Numbered from the stretch's first letter, positions 40,182 through 63,417 are shown. The stretch is 64,000 nt of DNA from Pseudomonadota bacterium (GCA_043821645.1 JBDRCO010000113.1:1-64000); one strand, 5' to 3'. Notes: generated from the letters alone by a model not told the origin. Numbers and translations are program-made.

Positions 40182-42328
<2,147 letters not shown>

Positions 42329-42332
<4 letters not shown>

Positions 42333-43315
42333 GCAGCGACGAGCTGATCCAGGGTGTGCGCGCGGGCGACCGGCGCTGGCTGGCCAAGGCGATCACCCTG
42401 GTCGAGAGCGCGCGTCCCGAGCACCAGACCCAGGCCGCCGCCCTGCTCGACGGTATCCTCGACACCCCACGTCGCGCCGTGCGCCTGGGTGTGAGCGGTG
42501 CGCCCGGGGCCGGCAAAAGCAGCCTCATAGAATGCCTGGGCATGCAGCTGGTGGAGAGCGGGACCCGCGTGGCCGTGCTGGCCGTGGATCCGTCGAGCCA
42601 GGTGAGCGGCGGCAGCATTCTCGGCGACAAGACCCGGATGGAGCGGCTCGGAGTTCACCCCATGGCATTCATCCGCCCCAGCCCTGCGCGGGGAAGCCTG
42701 GGTGGCGTCGCCACACACACCCGCGAGGCCATGCTGCTGTGCGAGGCCGCCGGGTATGACGTGGTGGTGGTCGAGACCGTGGGAGTGGGTCAGTCCGAGG
42801 CCACGGTGGCTGACCTCGTCGACTTCTGCGCGGTGCTGATTCCTCCCGGTGCCGGTGACGCCCTGCAGGGGATGAAGCGCGGTCTCATCGAGCTGGCCGA
42901 CGCCCTCCTGATCAACAAGGTTGACGTCGACAGCGAGGCGGCCGCACGAACCGCGCGCGACTATTCCCAGGCCCTCGAACTGCTGGGCGTCAAGGACGAC
43001 GGATGGGCCCCCCAGGTGTTGCAGATCTCGGCGCACACCGGTCAGGGCGTCGACACGCTGTGGCAGCAGGTGCAGGCGCAACGCCATGTGCTCGGTGCTG
43101 ACGGCCTCGAGCAGCGGCGTCTCAGGCAGGCGGTCCGCTGGTTCCATGCCCAGCTCGAGCAGGGTCTGTGGCGGGCCTTGCGTGGCGATCCCACCCTGCA
43201 TGCCGAGCTTCGTGCCCTGGAACAGGCTGTTCTGCAAGGTCAGATGCACCCGGACCGGGCGGCCCGCAAGCTCATCGCCCACATGCTCGCGCCACGACAC
43301 GAACCGGCCGGGTGA
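42329..43315 (+). CDS. meaB: Methylmalonyl-CoA mutase-associated GTPase
   Basis: [42 protein letters not shown] overlap with scpA. Confidence 0.96.
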
Positions 43316-43399
43316 GCACAAACGACGACGGGTCGTTGCGTCGACGCTTCGTTCGGCGCTAGCCTGGGACAGGAGCCGCCCCAGAGCCACGGAGACGGC

Positions 43400-45331
43400 G
43401 TGCGCACCTCGCTCAGCATTCGCATCTTCCTGGGTTTTCTCGCCATGCTGGCGGTTTTCGGCGGCTCGTCGGTGTACGGCATCCTGCGCATGGACGCCAT
43501 CCGCCAGGACCTGCAGTTGACCAGCCAGGGCTACCTGCAGCTCACGCGATCCCTGACCCAGGTCAAGACCATCGCCGAGTCCCGCGATGCCTACGTCGAG
43601 CGCGCCCTGGCCGAGACCGACCCGCGCGTGCGTCAATACCTGGTCCGCTATGCGCGCGACTTCTATCCGCGGGTGCTGCGCGAGCGCCTGGCCGAGCTGG
43701 CGCAGTCGGCGCGCCGGCTCGCGGGGCAATCCCTGCCCGCCTCGGATGCCACCTTCGCGTCCGAAGTGGCTGCCCGCCTGGACCGCGCGGTGGAGCTCAA
43801 CCGGGCAGCGGACAGCGCCGCAGCCGAGTTCTTCGAGCTCGTGGCCGAGGCGCCCACAGCGATCCCTACCGAGGTCCTGGCACGACAGAAGGACAGTGCC
43901 ACCGCGCTCGGCCGCGAGCTCAAGCTGGTCTCGCTCAACCTCGACAACAAGATTGCCCAGGGCGTGCTGCGCGCCGAGGAACAGGAACGCAACGCCGTGT
44001 GGGCCCTGATTGCCCTGGCGCTGGCAGGCGTGGTGGTGGGCCTCACCATCACCGTGGTGCTGACGCGGGCGCTGCGCCCCCTCACCGACCTGACCGAGGC
44101 CGCGCGCGCCATCAGTCGCGGCGCCTTCGATGTGCGCATCGAGGCCACCCGCCGCCATGACGAGATAGGGACCCTGGCCCTGAGCTTCGCGGACATGGCG
44201 CGCGCGCTGCGCGATCGCGAGGTGGTGCTGGCGCGTCGCCGCGTCGAGTTCGAGAGCCTGAACGCCTTTTTGGAGAACGTGCTGCACTCGGTGAGCACGG
44301 GCGTCGTGGTGTGCAACCGCGAGCGCGGGATCACCGTGGCCAACCGGGCGGCGCGACGGCTCATGGGCCTGACCCTGGTGGACCCCGTGGGCCGCAGCAT
44401 CGATGAGATACCTCTGGGAGGCCTGCTCGAGGAGCACTGGACCGAGATCCAGCGTGTGCTCGACGACGCCACGCCGCTCAAGCGCGAGGCGCAGGCTCTG
44501 CGACCGGCCGACGGCCCTAGCGTGCTGGTGGACCTGCGCGTGCTGCCCTTCACCCAGCCCGGCGCGCCTTCCAATGTCGGCGGATGGGTGTTCCTGCTCG
44601 ACGACGTCTCGGAGCGTGAGCGCACCCGTGAGCGCTTGCTGCAGAGCGAGCGCCTGGCCGCCATGGGACGCCTGGCCGCCCAGGTCGCCCACGAGATCCG
44701 CAACCCGCTGTCCTCGATCGGGCTCAACTGCGAACTCCTCGCCGACGACCTGCAGCGGGTGGCCGCGGACGATGGCGACGTGCAGCGTTTGCTGGGCGCC
44801 ATTGCTGCAGAGATTGACCGCCTCACCGAGATCACCGACGGCTATCTGCGCTACGCGCGTCTCCCCGAAGCTAGCCTGCGGCCGGCCGACGTGGGCGACG
44901 TGGTGCGTGACGTGGCTGATTTCGTCCGCGCCGACCTCGAGCGCCGCGGTCTGTCTCTCGAGTTGCAGGTGGCCCGGGACCTGCCCTCGCTGTCCGTGGA
45001 CCCCTCGCGAGTGCGCCTGGCCCTCCTCAACCTCCTGCGCAACGCCGCGGACGCGACCCTTGACGGCGGTTCCATCCAGCTGTCGGTGGACAGGGTCGAC
45101 GACGCGGTGCAGATCTCCGTCGACGACCACGGCGCGGGCGTGCCCGAGGAGTTGGTGCCAAAGCTGTTCGAGGCTTTCTTCTCGACCAAGCCGGATGGGA
45201 CGGGCCTGGGCCTCAGCGTGACCCGCGATGTGGCCCTCGAGCACGGTGGCGTCGCAGGCTATGAGCCACGCTCGGAGGGAGGCTCGCGGTTTTTCCTTCG
45301 GCTGGCGGCCTTGCCTCCGCAAGATGGGTAA
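43400..45331 (+). CDS. Membrane sensor histidine kinase (HAMP-PAS-HisKA-HATPase, NtrB/PilS-like)
   Basis: Two TM segments, HAMP, AHEIRNPL, NLLRNA, DHGAG, FFSTK, GTGLGL. Confidence 0.93.
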   Translation: MRTSLSIRIFLGFLAMLAVFGGSSVYGILRMDAIRQDLQLTSQGYLQLTRSLTQVKTIAESRDAYVERALAETDPRVRQYLVRYARDFYPRVLRERLAELAQSARRLAGQSLPASDATFASEVAARLDRAVELNRAADSAAAEFFELVAEAPTAIPTEVLARQKDSATALGRELKLVSLNLDNKIAQGVLRAEEQERNAVWALIALALAGVVVGLTITVVLTRALRPLTDLTEAARAISRGAFDVRIEATRRHDEIGTLALSFADMARALRDREVVLARRRVEFESLNAFLENVLHSVSTGVVVCNRERGITVANRAARRLMGLTLVDPVGRSIDEIPLGGLLEEHWTEIQRVLDDATPLKREAQALRPADGPSVLVDLRVLPFTQPGAPSNVGGWVFLLDDVSERERTRERLLQSERLAAMGRLAAQVAHEIRNPLSSIGLNCELLADDLQRVAADDGDVQRLLGAIAAEIDRLTEITDGYLRYARLPEASLRPADVGDVVRDVADFVRADLERRGLSLELQVARDLPSLSVDPSRVRLALLNLLRNAADATLDGGSIQLSVDRVDDAVQISVDDHGAGVPEELVPKLFEAFFSTKPDGTGLGLSVTRDVALEHGGVAGYEPRSEGGSRFFLRLAALPPQDG

Positions 45332-45717
45332 TAGTTTAATTATATCTTTATCTTACAATTTTTTTGGCCTCTCACTTCACATGCAGCGGACGGCGGCAGG
45401 GTCGGGCAGCCCGCCTGGCCCGAGTATCCGTCTGTGTGGCACGACGGGCCCTGAGCCGACGATTCTCACGCTTTTCCTGATGGCACATGCACTACATGCA
45501 CTGTCACGTGCTGAACAGTCCGAAAATCGAACTTCAATCGGTGGGTCTCACTGGGTTTTTTGCAACGACTGGTCTTTTTCAGATGCTGTCAAAACCGATG
45601 CTGCCTTGAAGAAGGGACTGATTTGCGGCGCGATCACAAGTTTTCAAGATCGTGTTATTGCTTGCAGTTTGATCGCTGGAGGCCAGGCAGAGGGCCAGGG
45701 TCGTTTATTTTTATTTG

Positions 45718-45735
45718 TTATTTCATATAGATACA
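45718..45735. promoter_or_regulatory. AT-rich, possibly IHF-like site upstream of the promoter
   Basis: TTATTTCATATAGATAC with flanking T-tracts; loose match only. Confidence 0.3.
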
Positions 45736-45827
45736 GAACTTTTTGATATCACATGTTTTTTTGTAACCACCCTGAGGGGTGTGCAAATCTTAACCACCAC
45801 GATTGTTGAAACGCGCTTTTTCAAACC

Positions 45828-45855
45828 TTGACAAGGATCGGCCCCTGGCTAAGAT
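45828..45855 (+). promoter_or_regulatory. Sigma70-type promoter TTGACA-N16-TAAGAT
   Basis: Perfect -35 and near-consensus -10, with AT-rich upstream sequence, in a high-GC genome. Confidence 0.75.
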
Positions 45856-45861
45856 GCCAAG

Positions 45862-46061
45862 CAGTTGCGACGGGCTCTCTCTTGGAGGACGAACTGGGTT
45901 GACGTTTGGCGGACAGACAATCCTCGTAGCCATCTGGTCCTTCCGTTGAACGTCATCCCTGTTGGTCGGCCGAGAGAAGAGCCGCTCACGGTCGCCCTAG
46001 ACCTCAACACACACCGAGGTCTTCTGGTCTCCGGGTCGCCCCAAGGGGCGGCCCGGAGGCT
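45862..46061 (+). ncRNA. Candidate structured ncRNA with three stem-loops; family not recognised
   Basis: Rod hairpin 45867-45995, hairpin 45999-46022 and 16-bp hairpin 46026-46061, directly after the promoter. Confidence 0.6.
46026..46061 (+). terminator. GC-rich hairpin, possible terminator or 3' stabiliser (no U-tract)
   Basis: GGTCTCCGGGTCGCCC-CAAG-GGGCGGCCCGGAGGCT. Confidence 0.45.
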
Positions 46062-46184
46062 CCCCCGTCTCCCCCGGACTTCCTGTCACCCCTGCATAGG
46101 TTCTTCAGCAGTGAGCTGCGACCAAGGAGACAGGCCCCCAGTGTGCTGCCAGCCCCCTGGCGAGATGCAGCACAGTCCCGGGAC

Positions 46185-46553
46185 ATGAACTCCCTGCGCA
46201 ACGAACTCGTCGAGCAGCTGGTTCGCGAGCTGTGGCACGATCCGACCCAGGCCAGCCGCAACCGCCACTTTCAAGCCTTCCAGGGCGACCTGGGGCGCCG
46301 CGCCCTGCGCTGCTATCGCCTGCTGCGCTCGCTGCGCCGTGAGCTCCTGCTCGCCGACCGGGTGACGGTGGAGCGTGATGGGCGTGGCACCTCCGTCATG
46401 GTCGAACTGCACGGCGTGCATGCCCGCCGGCGGGTGTCCCTGACGCCCCGACTGTTCGCCTTGCTCCAGGACGACGAGGAACTGCGCCATCGCCTGCCGG
46501 GAGACGTGGCTGCGGGAGGTCCGATCGAGGGCCCGCTGCGCGGCCTCAGTTGA
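46185..46553 (+). CDS. Hypothetical protein
   Basis: MNSLRNELVEQLVREL...SRNRHFQAF; GC-rich third codon positions. Confidence 0.65.
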   Translation: MNSLRNELVEQLVRELWHDPTQASRNRHFQAFQGDLGRRALRCYRLLRSLRRELLLADRVTVERDGRGTSVMVELHGVHARRRVSLTPRLFALLQDDEELRHRLPGDVAAGGPIEGPLRGLS

Positions 46554-49500
46554 CCTTGTCGAGGATCTGGGAGTCGCTCTGTGTCCCCGCACGCCAGGTC
46601 AGGGTGGTGCGGTCCCGCGCCGTGTGATCGTCGAAGTCGAAGTTGTCCACCTTGAGCTGGAACAGGGTCCAGAAATGGTTGCCCGTGGGGATGTTGTCGA
46701 TCCGGGTCTCACCGCCCAGCTCGGGCAGGGTGATGGTTCGCGGGTCGCCCCTGACGATCACGGTCCACAGCGGCGTGAAGCTGTCGTTGCCGGAGTCGTA
46801 GACCGAGATGATGGTCATGTCAGGGGTGGCGCCCCCCGAACGCGCGAAGGTGAATCGGCCCTCGGTGGGGCTCTGGGTGGTGCCATTCTGGAACGAGCTG
46901 GAGGTGAACTGCGGGAAGAACACCCAGGTCGACAGCATGGGAGGCGACATGCTGGTCAGATTGCGCACGAAGGAGTTGGCAGTGGGGGTGGTGAAGTCCA
47001 CGATGGTGTTGCCATCGACCACCGGGGCGGAGACGTAGCCGCGTACCGTGTAGGTCCAGGCTCCCCGCAGCAGTGGCACGGGGCCGAAGTTGATGCCCGA
47101 ACCATCGCCCTTGAGCTGCCCCAGAAACACGAAGTTTCCACTGTTGCCCGTGTGCAGGTAGGCGTCCGCGGTGTAGGCCGTGCCGTTGGCCCCGAGGTAG
47201 GTCGGGTTGCTGTTGATGCTGGCGTTGAAGGCGACGGCAGGCACGTCGAGGTTGATGTTGTTGCCGCCGGTGGCTCCGCCTCCGCCTTGCACATTGATGT
47301 CGGTGGTGATGCCGTAGGTGGCGCCGATGGTGCCCCAGATGAAGAAGCCGAAGCCATCGTACCAGGCCGAGCCCAGCCAGCCCTCGCAGTTCTGATTGCC
47401 CTGCTGCTGGCACTGCGCCGTCCCCGACACGGGCTGGTTGCCACACACGCCGTCGACGGAATCCCAGAAGGCCACAGAGGCGATCACTGCGTGCACGCCG
47501 GGCGAAGAATTGACCGAGTAGCTGGCGTCCCCCAGCACGGTCGCGGTGCCGTCGGGGAGGACCAGGGAACACGTGGCCTGGTCGCTGCGAATCTCGATGG
47601 CCCAGGATTCGATTCCTGGCGGGTAGTTGCCGTTAAGGATATCGGAGTGCGACGGAACCACCTGGGCCACGCGGTAGTAGCGGTTGGCCGGGTTGCCCGT
47701 GGGGAGACCCGCATTGGACCAGCCCGTCACCGTTCCACTGATCACGCCGTGATCGTAGGGCTGCGCATTGGGGTTCTTGGGCGTCAACAGCACGGTCACA
47801 TTCTGCGCGTTGAGGCCGATGATGCTCGTGGTCTCGAAATCGGTGGCGCCGACCGTGATCATGAGCGGTCCCTGTAAAACCTTGTCACCCGACAGCACCG
47901 TCATTCCGTTCACGTCGGTGACACCCTTGTTGTACGAGCCCTCGGTCACGTTGCCGTCGTCACCGGCGAACACCACCGCGTTGCGCAGCCGGGTCAGGTC
48001 ATCGTCGCGAATGACCGTAATACTGAGGTTGTGAGCGATGGGACCGCCGCCGTGGACCGCGTCCTTGTCGGTGGGATCTACCACCTGCAGCACCTCGGTG
48101 TCCTCCTGACCCGTCTCGTTGTTGCGCACCAGCAGGGTCTTCTGCCCCTCGTTCATGGGCCCGCGCGAGCGGAAGGTCAGGATGTGCAGGTCGACCTGGT
48201 CGCGCTGCAGGTCGTCCACCGGGTTGCCGTCGATGGTGACCGTCATGTTGATGGCCTCGGCAAAACCTGTACCCACCACGGTGATGAAGGTGCGCCCAGC
48301 CTTGGACAGGATGCTGGGCGTCACGGTCTGGATGCGCGTGAATTCCCGGAAGGCCACACCCACCCACTCGGCCGAGGTCTCGAACTCCGTCTGCACCGTG
48401 ACCGGGATGTCCTCGCCCTCGGGATGCGGCGGTGCATTGCAGGTGAGCTCGGCCTGGTTGGTCACGATGACATTGGTTGCGGCCATGTTGCCGAAGAACA
48501 CCTGGGTGCTGCCAATGGTGAAGCCCTCGCCATTGACGGTGACGGTGTCACCCCCGGCCGAGGGCAACACCGTGGGCGTGACCTGGGTGATGACCGGTAC
48601 CCGATAATAAGTGAATCCATTTTCGAGCGTGGCGACGTCGGCCTGGCGGTGCGCGGTGACCGCCACAGGCTCTGACACCAGGGTTCCTGCCAGGGCGTAG
48701 GGCGGGGTCTGCACCCGGATGCTGGTGCTGGTCACCTGGTCGATGGCGGCCTCGGTGCCTGCAAACTGGATGGTGACCAGGCTGTCGAAGCCAGTGCCGG
48801 TGATCTCGACCTGGGTGCCACCCGCATTGCGGCCGATGCGCGGATTGACGTCGAGGATGCGCAGGGTCGTATCCGTCGAGCTGTAGTAGGTGAAACCGCC
48901 CGCCAGCATCCCTTCATCACCCGGCGCGCGGCGCACCACCACGTCGACGGAACCCGCGGTGCTGGCGACAGGCACCGTGGCGGTGATGGTGGTGGAGTTG
49001 ACCACCGTGTAGGTGACCGCGTCGTTGCCGCCAAACAGCACCGCGACGGCGCCATCAAAGGCACTGCCGATGATGGTGACCTGGCGGGTCTGGTTCATGA
49101 AGGCCCAGTTGGGGGTCACGCCCGAGACCACCACCGGATCGCGCACGGTCAGGCCCGCGGGCAACACCGCCTCCCGATTGTCGCCGTTGCGCACCAGGAC
49201 GTCGTAGCTGCCAACCGTGAGCGCGGGTAGCTGGGCCTCGATCGCGGTGTCGCTCGAGGAGATCAGGGCCAGCTGCTGCGTGCCGACGCGGACGACGGGA
49301 TCGATGGCGTCGACCACGAAGCCGCTGCCGTTGATGGTCAAGGTGGTCGCGGCATTGGCCGGGATGGCGAAGGGTGAGATGCCGGAGATGGTCACGGCCT
49401 GCTGATAGGTGAAGGCATCGAGCAGTTCTCCGGTGCCCGCCGACGAGGTGGCCTTGATGGAGACCACGCCGCGCGCGGCCGGCGGTGAGATCACGACCAG

Positions 49501-62323: not shown

Positions 62324-63417
62324 CGCACACCTCCTGTGGTCGTGGGGACGCGAATGCTCCGGCCGTCGACGGCACGCAAGGTCCAGGCATCCTCATCGCG
62401 CGCGATCACACGTCCGGGGTGCAGGCGCACCTTGCCTCCGGCCTCGGGGAGGTCGACCACCAGATCGGGCAAGGCCAACCCAGATACGCGGTCACGCAGT
62501 GTCTCGATGAGCGCCATGGCGCGCTCGAGCGGCACCCGGACATGTGCGCTGCCGCTCACCAGATCACACTGGTGCAGGTAATAGGGGACCACGCGCTGCT
62601 GCAACAGGGCTCTAAAAAGGTTCTCAAGGACCTGGGCGTCGTCGTTGATCCCGCGCAGCAGCACGGTCTGGCTCAGTACAGGCACTCCGGCGTTCACCAA
62701 TCGACCCAGAGCGCCCGCCACCTCCGCATCCAGTTCCACAGCATGGTTGATATGCACGAGCACAAACAGAGGCTGCGCCCGCCTGAGCACACCGACCAGA
62801 CGCGCCGTGATACGCCTCGGCACGAACACCGGCAGCCGCGTGCCGAGCCGGATCACCTCGACGTGACGCAGGGTCCGCAGCTCTCGCAGCAGCAGCTCGA
62901 GACGACGGTCGTCGAGCATGAGCGGATCGCCCCCGGACAGGATGACCTCCCGGATCTCATCGTGGGCATGCAGGTACTCGAGGGCCGCATCGAGACGGGG
63001 TGGCGGCGTACCCGCCAGCCGCGCACGCGTGCAGAAACGGCAATAGGCCGCACACGTGCCGGTGACGAGGAGCAGGGCCCGATCAGGATAGCGGTGCACC
63101 AGCCCGGGCACGGGCATGTGCTGCAGCTCGGCCAGGGGATCCCCGTGCTCCCCTTCTGCCACCGCGAGTTCCGCCATGCGCGGGATGAGCTGCCGGCGCA
63201 GGGGATGGTCGCGATCGGCCCGGGGCAGGTGGCGCAGCACATGGGGGGTCAGCGCCAGCGCGCGGGCTCCATGCAAGCTCCGTATCGCCGCGCGCTCGTC
63301 ATCATCGAGATCGAGGTGCCGCTCCAGACCCGCCAGGTCGGTGACCACGCGGGCGAGTTCCCGCTGCCAGGGGGACGGAGGGGTGCGGCGATGACTCCGG
63401 CGAAGGGCGCTGTGCAC
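62320..63417 (-). CDS. KamA-family radical SAM amino-acid 2,3-aminomutase
   Basis: HRYPDRAL, CAAYCRFC, SGGDPL, QTVLLRGIND, PYYLHQCD, GGK (PLP Lys). Confidence 0.9.
   Translation of the reverse strand: MHSALRRSHRRTPPSPWQRELARVVTDLAGLERHLDLDDDERAAIRSLHGARALALTPHVLRHLPRADRDHPLRRQLIPRMAELAVAEGEHGDPLAELQHMPVPGLVHRYPDRALLLVTGTCAAYCRFCTRARLAGTPPPRLDAALEYLHAHDEIREVILSGGDPLMLDDRRLELLLRELRTLRHVEVIRLGTRLPVFVPRRITARLVGVLRRAQPLFVLVHINHAVELDAEVAGALGRLVNAGVPVLSQTVLLRGINDDAQVLENLFRALLQQRVVPYYLHQCDLVSGSAHVRVPLERAMALIETLRDRVSGLALPDLVVDLPEAGGKVRLHPGRVIARDEDAWTLRAVDGRSIRVPTTTGGVR

Follow-up and report, generated by a model that had tools for sequence, protein, structure and literature searches.

A structured 5' leader RNA of an uncultured Myxococcota family, with a rod loop complementary to the start of a histone H1-like gene

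Between a large divergent ORF and a small protein gene, the DNA analysed here (the window, 64,000 nt of contig C113 from the 7.07-Mb, 140-contig draft genome G000) appears to encode a highly structured RNA behind its own promoter, at 45828-46061. The locus raises the question of what such an RNA acts on: the gene that follows it, a transcript made elsewhere in the genome, or both, and which of its parts would be responsible. A sequence-only reading had proposed a novel RNA of about 200 nt, either an abundant small RNA or a long leader, whose CA-rich second loop might pair with targets. We examined the promoter, the fold, the distribution of homologues and the complementarity of the RNA to the rest of the genome.

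Promoter, fold and relation to known RNA families

The sigma-70-type promoter TTGACA-N16-TAAGAT lies on the plus strand at 45828-45855, where the sequence-only reading had placed it, and in the promoter scan it is the sole sigma-70-like site in 45000-47000 (shuffle mean 0.2); the same scan found no minus-strand promoter in that interval. The promoter is present in all four homologous loci (the window and the three relatives described below), with CTTGACAAG, a 16-nt spacer and a -10 element TAATAT or TAAGAT, the spacers having been counted by eye. Transcription probably starts near 45862. A near-consensus promoter of its own is a feature of trans-encoded base-pairing small RNAs. Upstream of the RNA, G+C content falls to 43-50%, compared with 63-75% in the rest of the window. 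This AT-rich gap 5' of the promoter also holds a terminator-like plus-strand hairpin with a T-run (45538-45562), and since no plus-strand gene obviously ends there, another small transcript is possible.

On the plus strand, 45860-46065 folds at a minimum free energy of -113.0 kcal/mol (z -6.78), with 0 of 200 shuffled sequences as stable, into an imperfect 45-bp hairpin, which we call the rod (45867-45995), followed by hairpin 2 (45999-46022) and hairpin 3 (46026-46061). The rod of about 129 nt, the 7-bp hairpin and the 16-bp GC hairpin described earlier were all recovered at their positions. The minus strand of the same interval reaches -97.8 kcal/mol (z -3.82). G.U pairs account for 4 of the 45 pairs in the rod and 3 of the 16 in hairpin 3, and the 1x1 mismatches of the rod are G.G, U.U and U.U, with no A.C. 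The G.U pairs and the mismatch types favour the plus-strand RNA as the selected strand, in agreement with the earlier argument from G.U pairs. In L064, a metagenomic homologue whose rod folds alike, the two strands are nearly equal in free energy (plus -111.7 kcal/mol, minus -114.9 kcal/mol), so that free energy alone gives the plus strand no advantage there, but its z score is the stronger one (-5.82 versus -4.75). We conclude that this is a real structured RNA region, under selection and placed behind a conserved strong promoter.

The Rfam 15 covariance models gave no match at gathering score anywhere in the 64-kb window, which bears out the proposed novelty with respect to Rfam. At E <= 10, the interval 45600-46300 returned four matches at chance level, to two miRNA families, one snoRNA family and one Burkholderia sRNA family (best E 0.73). 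It is extremely improbable that the RNA is a diverged member of a housekeeping or otherwise described family, such as 6S RNA, a retron msr-msd or Pxr. The rod shape recalls both 6S RNA and msd, and 6S RNA (RF00013) is also similar in its length of about 200 nt and its strong promoter. However, the large central bubble of 6S RNA is absent from the rod, whose interruptions are limited to small bulges and internal loops of 1x1 or 2x2 nt, and the genome has a separate, canonical 6S RNA (C68:78177-78389, 61.6 bits). A retron would bring a reverse transcriptase, and neither flanking ORF has a reverse-transcriptase domain in Pfam. Pxr of Myxococcus xanthus comes from the same phylum and has several stem-loops, but the likeness to Pxr suggested earlier finds no support beyond the number of stem-loops, three: no Rfam family scored above chance in the region, and the RNA is restricted, as sampled, to a single uncultured family, in which two of the four homologues are missing the rod altogether.

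A two-hairpin module ahead of a 122-residue protein gene

The RNA is single-copy in G000, with one match in the 7.07-Mb draft genome, and has three homologues, one in genome G001 and two on metagenome contigs (L056 and L064), all from one uncultured Myxococcota family. G001, which is 82% complete and is the only other species of this family in the genome collection, was the sole true homologue found by BLAST of the RNA among 61 related genomes. BLAST matches in G010 and G028 cover 25-30 nt of hairpin 3 (E about 0.006) and were set aside; the G028 match lies about 7.9 kb from the orthologue of the downstream gene, and G010 has no orthologue. The two metagenome contigs came from a second metagenome scan, which used a pattern built from the window and G001 sequences and gave 21 matches, the other 19 of which lack the hairpins. 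None of the 213 stretches from a first metagenome scan by protein patterns was confirmed, and a word-based search for the protein recovered nothing beyond the query. A protein-guided search of genomes yielded 13 loci, with the leader present only in the G001 record (L006).

We also searched 151 genomes with a covariance model of hairpins 2 and 3 (R1). Strong matches occurred in G000 and G001 only, so that the RNA is confined, as sampled, to one uncultured family. Five further matches at E 0.006-0.1 lie on a contig other than that of the orthologue (G012, G042 and G084) or in genomes with no recorded orthologue match (G087 and G049). Among the contigs of four DNA runs examined, those of run X2 contain an identical copy of 45715-46100, and run X7 contains a variant of 46040-46361 that stops short of the rod. 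The DNA runs that include the stretch derive from groundwater and biofilm, and no RNA run is listed among those containing it.

All four loci share the promoter, hairpin 2, a UCUYCUGG linker, hairpin 3 and a C-rich tail with a run of at least five C. The rod, which had been taken for a constant part of the RNA, is absent from G001 and L056, where roughly 30-40 unrelated nt are found instead. The proposed CA-rich seed fares no better: hairpin 2 of the window has a 7-bp stem and a 10-nt CA-rich loop, AACACACACC, but the three homologues have a CCUCGC/GCGAGG stem in a different register and a 3-nt loop (AAA, AUU or AAU), so this seed is peculiar to the window and is not conserved. What is conserved is GAGGUCUYCUGG, formed by the 3' arm of hairpin 2 and the linker (46016-46027) and invariant in all four loci save for the Y. 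Hairpin 3 is GC-rich, with no U-tract after it. When the module is aligned across the four sequences, 96.6% of the 88 pair cells are paired, compared with at most 50% when the 3' partner columns are slid by 1-3 positions, and hairpin 3 contains two pairs in which both bases differ between sequences (G-C/A-U and C-G/U-A). The covariation expected in homologues appears as two compensatory pairs, but 32 of 500 shuffle trials reach the observed score, and for four related sequences we regard the covariation of hairpins 2 and 3 as supportive, short of proof.

An intrinsic terminator is absent, as hairpin 3 is followed by CUCCCCC in all four loci and the terminator scan lists nothing there. U-tracts are present at other terminators, namely those after the H1-like genes of G000 and G001 (see below) and the one at 45538-45562. 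The spacer that leads to the downstream gene (46062-46184) is C-rich, containing 49 C in 123 nt, with 23 C and 8 G in its first 49 nt, and may be a Rho loading site. In the X7 strain variant, 11 of 15 differences fall within 46088-46140 and none within 46040-46087, so the former part is loosely constrained.

The downstream gene encodes 122 amino acids on the plus strand (46185-46553), its ATG separated from hairpin 3 by 123 nt in the window. Only 13 nt lie between the base of hairpin 3 and the start codon (TTG or GTG) in G001 and L056, so that transcription of the gene must pass through both hairpins there, making the RNA its 5' leader. As in a cis-regulatory 5' leader, the RNA of these two loci lies between promoter and gene with no room for another promoter. 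The gene is next in line in all three loci that have downstream DNA; L064 ends 37 nt past hairpin 3. The earlier alternative of a small RNA or a long leader was thus well framed: the RNA has a promoter of its own and is, in G001 and L056, a 5' leader. In the G001 leader (L006 1385-1500), the 5' part is predicted to pair with downstream codons 3-9 and so to enclose both hairpins; by eye, GUGGU/ACCGC is the only part of this pairing that recurs in L056. Hairpins 2 and 3 may protect the 3' end of a released fragment, bind a protein, or control the downstream start, which has no Shine-Dalgarno (SD) sequence.

The 122-aa protein belongs to a Myxococcota-wide family, its profile matching 194 of 301 sampled genomes of the phylum (a tally that includes genome G195). 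Assemblies with relatives include Bradymonadia, Lujinxingia and Myxococcales, and an SRNR motif is invariant across the family loci L007-L048. Searches of Pfam (29 members included), NCBIfam, PDB profiles and the ESM Atlas found no relatives, nor did Foldseek (best E 0.45); the AF2 model (pLDDT 83.5) shows helices followed by a three-stranded sheet. In the upstream regions of about 34 of 40 folded orthologous loci, the promoter and hairpins are found only in L006. Most of the orthologues in this set (loci L008, L015 and L021-L048) have the motif TGnTAnnnT at 7-10 nt upstream of the start codon, a hint that their mRNAs are leaderless. Since orthologues outside the family (about 34 of 40 loci) are without the leader, the leader is an addition of this family. 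The other neighbours are a divergent 1122-aa ORF upstream of the RNA (41954-45322, minus strand), which has no Pfam or NCBIfam family, and, beyond the small gene, a convergent 1145-aa ORF identified by Pfam and NCBIfam as a choice-of-anchor-Z protein with TIG domains.

The rod loop and an H1-like gene start

The rod can be compared in two sequences, the window and L064. The rod core, 45880-45975, is the only part kept in L064, and the basal 13 bp are not conserved. Compensatory changes occur at 45880/45975, 45889/45966 and 45892/45963, together with several one-sided changes. Alternatively, the rod could be an inserted palindromic DNA element, now degenerate, that is MITE- or REP-like or was made by replication slippage and is transcribed by chance, leaving hairpins 2 and 3 as the only parts that matter. 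Its palindromic form would fit, as would its presence or absence as a clean block of about 100-135 nt between alignable flanks. We nevertheless consider an insertion improbable, because of the compensatory changes relative to L064, the presence of 4 G.U pairs with no A.C among the 1x1 mismatches, and the lack of visible terminal inverted repeats with a target-site duplication. MITE and REP elements are also expected in many copies, and the 7.07-Mb assembly has one match, a count to be read with the caveat that draft assemblies of uncultured organisms can lose repeats.

Between these two rod-bearing sequences, identity varies greatly along the rod. The apical loop (45919-45936, plus strand) has a mean unpaired probability of 0.90. 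The loop core, 45921-45938, is identical at 17 of 18 positions, GGGUUGACGUUU at 12 of 12 and the partner arm, 45948-45959, at 10 of 12, compared with 6 of 15 and 6 of 9 in the segments beside the loop core and 5 of 13 and 7 of 20 at the rod base. This loop, which the sequence-only reading had overlooked, is likely to be the seed of the RNA, and a specific candidate target can be given for it.

Because the loop is the conserved single-stranded part, we scanned the genome for its complement; the search was chosen after loop conservation had been seen, and so is one principled but post hoc test. The best non-self duplex for the loop in the 7.07-Mb genome is on contig C87, at -40.3 kcal/mol (20 shuffled loops gave best values of -38.0 to -28.6 kcal/mol). 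The C87 site, CAGAUGGCUACGAGGA, is a 16-nt perfect complement of 45921-45936; a perfect match of 16 nt anywhere in the genome exists for just 17 of 2000 shuffled loops. The complement falls on the start of a small minus-strand gene (G000:C87:63198-63359, equal to L079 299-460, with its ATG at 63359). Past one bulged A the duplex continues over GGAGGAC, so that 45921-45948 is complementary to the SD sequence, the AUG and codons 2-4 of the target (-15 to +12, about 27 bp), at -51.2 kcal/mol by duplexfold. The whole RNA pairs with the C87 start region at -60.3 kcal/mol, an energy unmatched in 1000 dinucleotide shuffles of that region (mean -39.1, sd 3.1, minimum -50.4 kcal/mol). A conserved unpaired seed with a complement beyond chance at a distant mRNA start is characteristic of trans-encoded base-pairing small RNAs. 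Among 401 genomes of the phylum, the exact 15-mer of this match occurs in G000 alone, at the RNA and C87 loci only; matches with one mismatch are scattered over 141 other genomes, and the one examined, in G001, does not belong to an H1-like gene.

The C87 gene has a TTGACA-N16-TAAAAT promoter, a leader of about 30 nt, a GGAGG SD, an ATG, 53 codons (MATRKTAKKAAKKPAKKVAKKK...) and a hairpin-plus-U terminator. Its product is a Lys/Ala-rich protein of 53 aa that we call histone H1-like. As the protein has no Pfam or NCBIfam match, this name rests on its Lys/Ala repeats, the form of the gene and what is known of such bacterial proteins. The exact protein sequence is absent from a collection of 15 billion proteins, so the gene is probably unannotated, and a DNA search with the C87 start region returned mostly Lys-codon repeats. 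An exact 15-mer, CGAAAATCGAACTTC, is also common to window positions 45521-45535 and G000:C87:63487-63501; its 14-nt core is otherwise missing from the 7.07-Mb genome, and the 15-mer is absent from L064 and the other loci. This second shared 15-mer relates the two regions beyond the loop match, and might be a site for a common regulator, a piece of another small transcript, or a sign of common descent of fragments.

The rod-less genome G001 provides a contrast. Its syntenic H1-like gene (MPAKKKAKKAVKK...; L114 436-585, from G001:C433, plus strand) adjoins the orthologue of the same 458-aa neighbour as in G000. It was found by this synteny, a HMMER search for the 53-aa protein in G001-G003 having returned nothing, which for G001 was a false negative; low-complexity proteins such as this one escape HMMER-type protein searches. 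The start region of the G001 gene differs from that on C87 (GGGAGGAGACCUCAUGCCCGCG..., encoding MPAKKK...). Pairing of the window RNA with this start is equalled by 475 of 1000 shuffles, that of the G001 leader with the start region of the H1-like gene on C87 by 455 of 1000, and that of the L056 leader with the G001 start by 121 of 1000. The G001 leader does contain GAGGUCUCCU, a 10-nt complement of its own H1-like start AGGAGACCUC (SD to AUG), but 73 of 1000 shuffles do as well, which is not significant. It is conceivable, though doubtful, that the two-hairpin module exerts a weaker form of the repression proposed below in relatives that have no rod. Rod and matching start region co-occur in G000 and are both absent in G001, which is a single contrast, and one that involves a genome only 82% complete. 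In the organism of L064, the predicted H1-like target site would contain ...GAAGGAACCAGAUGGCUACGAGGU....

These observations can also be accommodated by a purely cis-acting 5' leader that tunes the stability, termination or translation of the 122-aa gene, with the H1-like complementarity being a relic that has no regulatory role, for example of a small inverted duplication of the start of the H1-like gene. We consider this possible, though rather unlikely. It would account for the start codon lying 13 nt past hairpin 3 in G001 and L056, for the constant module being the part common to the four homologues, for the rod being dispensable in two of them, and for the lack of a leader in orthologues elsewhere, which makes leaders a lineage-specific addition; the similarity to the target even takes in the SD with one indel, as a duplicated fragment would. 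Neutral decay of a relic should, however, be even, yet the loop is 17/18 identical to that of L064 and the adjacent rod 40-67%, and the match sits exactly in the single-stranded tip.

Very improbably, the product could instead be on the minus strand, either a small ORF at 45790-45933 (47 aa, beginning MATR after a GGAAGGA SD) or a decoy of the H1-like start. This ORF does exist, and it begins with a region similar to the start of the H1-like gene. Yet the same frame stops after 9 codons in L064, there is no minus-strand promoter in 45000-47000, and it is the plus strand that has the conserved promoter and the G.U pattern.

Proposed mode of action and comparison with known systems

We lean slightly towards a modular 5' leader with a trans-acting antisense rod aimed at the start of the H1-like gene, and on the complementarity described above, pairing of the rod tip probably turns off translation of that gene. 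From the observed structure, conservation and complementarity, with its statistics, we infer repression, transcript ends and processing along the following lines. The strong housekeeping-type promoter would produce an RNA with its 5' end tucked into the rod, the constant part being the two-hairpin module and the rod of about 100-130 nt lying between the transcription start and the module in the window's lineage. The exposed 18-nt loop would nucleate pairing with the H1-like mRNA at its AUG and codons 2-4. A 16-bp helix can be accommodated by an 18-nt loop only if the weak apical stem gives way, and the co-fold minimum keeps the rod closed; we propose that this stem (3 bp beside a 2x2 loop) opens and that pairing enters the 3' arm of the rod, crosses the one bulged A and covers the SD sequence. 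The 30S subunit would then be excluded, and the long duplex may be cut, such that when the promoter is active less H1-like protein would be made. Loop nucleation, occlusion of the SD and AUG, and duplex cleavage are the standard logic of trans-acting antisense RNAs. The acting form could be the whole leader-mRNA or a fragment of about 200 nt with hairpin 3 at its end; this hairpin may then shield the 3' end once Rho-type termination or processing has taken place.

This proposal names a concrete RNA-target pair that is open to a simple reporter assay with compensatory mutations. An antisense rod that is present in one lineage and absent from its sister would also offer insight into how an existing 5' UTR can acquire a trans-acting function. 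Should the pairing prove to be without function, the locus is still a structured leader of an ordinary, lineage-specific sort. The RNA represents a new family, one that most likely works by a well-known principle. To our knowledge, regulatory RNAs are almost unexplored in Myxococcota beyond Myxococcus, and we know of none from its uncultured deep branches. Judged by titles and abstracts, none of the papers listed by a search on small-RNA control of histone-like protein translation in Myxococcus describes such a regulator.

The closest parallel is IhtA of Chlamydia trachomatis, a small RNA predicted to have three stem-loops, the first of which pairs through its loop over the initiation codon of hctA (encoding the histone-like Hc1) and blocks translation; the functional pairing is 6-7 nt and does not touch the SD (PMC4355289). 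As far as that account goes, the two systems would have in common three stem-loops and a first-stem loop directed against the start codon of a distant gene for a small, very basic, histone-like DNA-binding protein. They differ in the pairing, predicted here to be 16 nt perfect and about 27 bp overall with the SD included, and in the nature of the RNA, IhtA being free-standing and the window RNA being the 5' leader of a protein gene in at least two homologues. The window RNA, moreover, shows no evident sequence or taxonomic relation to IhtA: no Rfam family matched the region, the phyla are different, and only the proposed working principle is alike.

Two other systems resemble the proposed RNA in part. 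Riboswitch-derived SreA of Listeria is a trans-acting RNA that derives from a leader (5' UTR), and it shares with the window RNA the arrangement of a cis-located leader of one gene with a segment that pairs with the mRNA of another locus; unlike SreA, the window RNA has no evident ligand-binding aptamer. Plant MIR hairpins are born by inverted duplication of their target and are, like the rod, long imperfect hairpins with a near-perfect antisense copy of part of the target. In the bacterial case, however, the antisense segment occupies the loop and one arm, there is no diced duplex, and such an origin is speculative. It is doubtful, but conceivable, that the leader captured a hairpin grown from an inverted copy of the H1-like start, giving an antisense module like that of a miRNA gene and convergent with the IhtA-HctA switch; synthesis of a nucleoid-compacting protein would then be inversely tied to that of the downstream gene. 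Should the proposed pairing be true, control of a histone H1-like nucleoid protein by RNA would have evolved in a second, independent instance, the first being the one that governs cell-type differentiation in chlamydiae.
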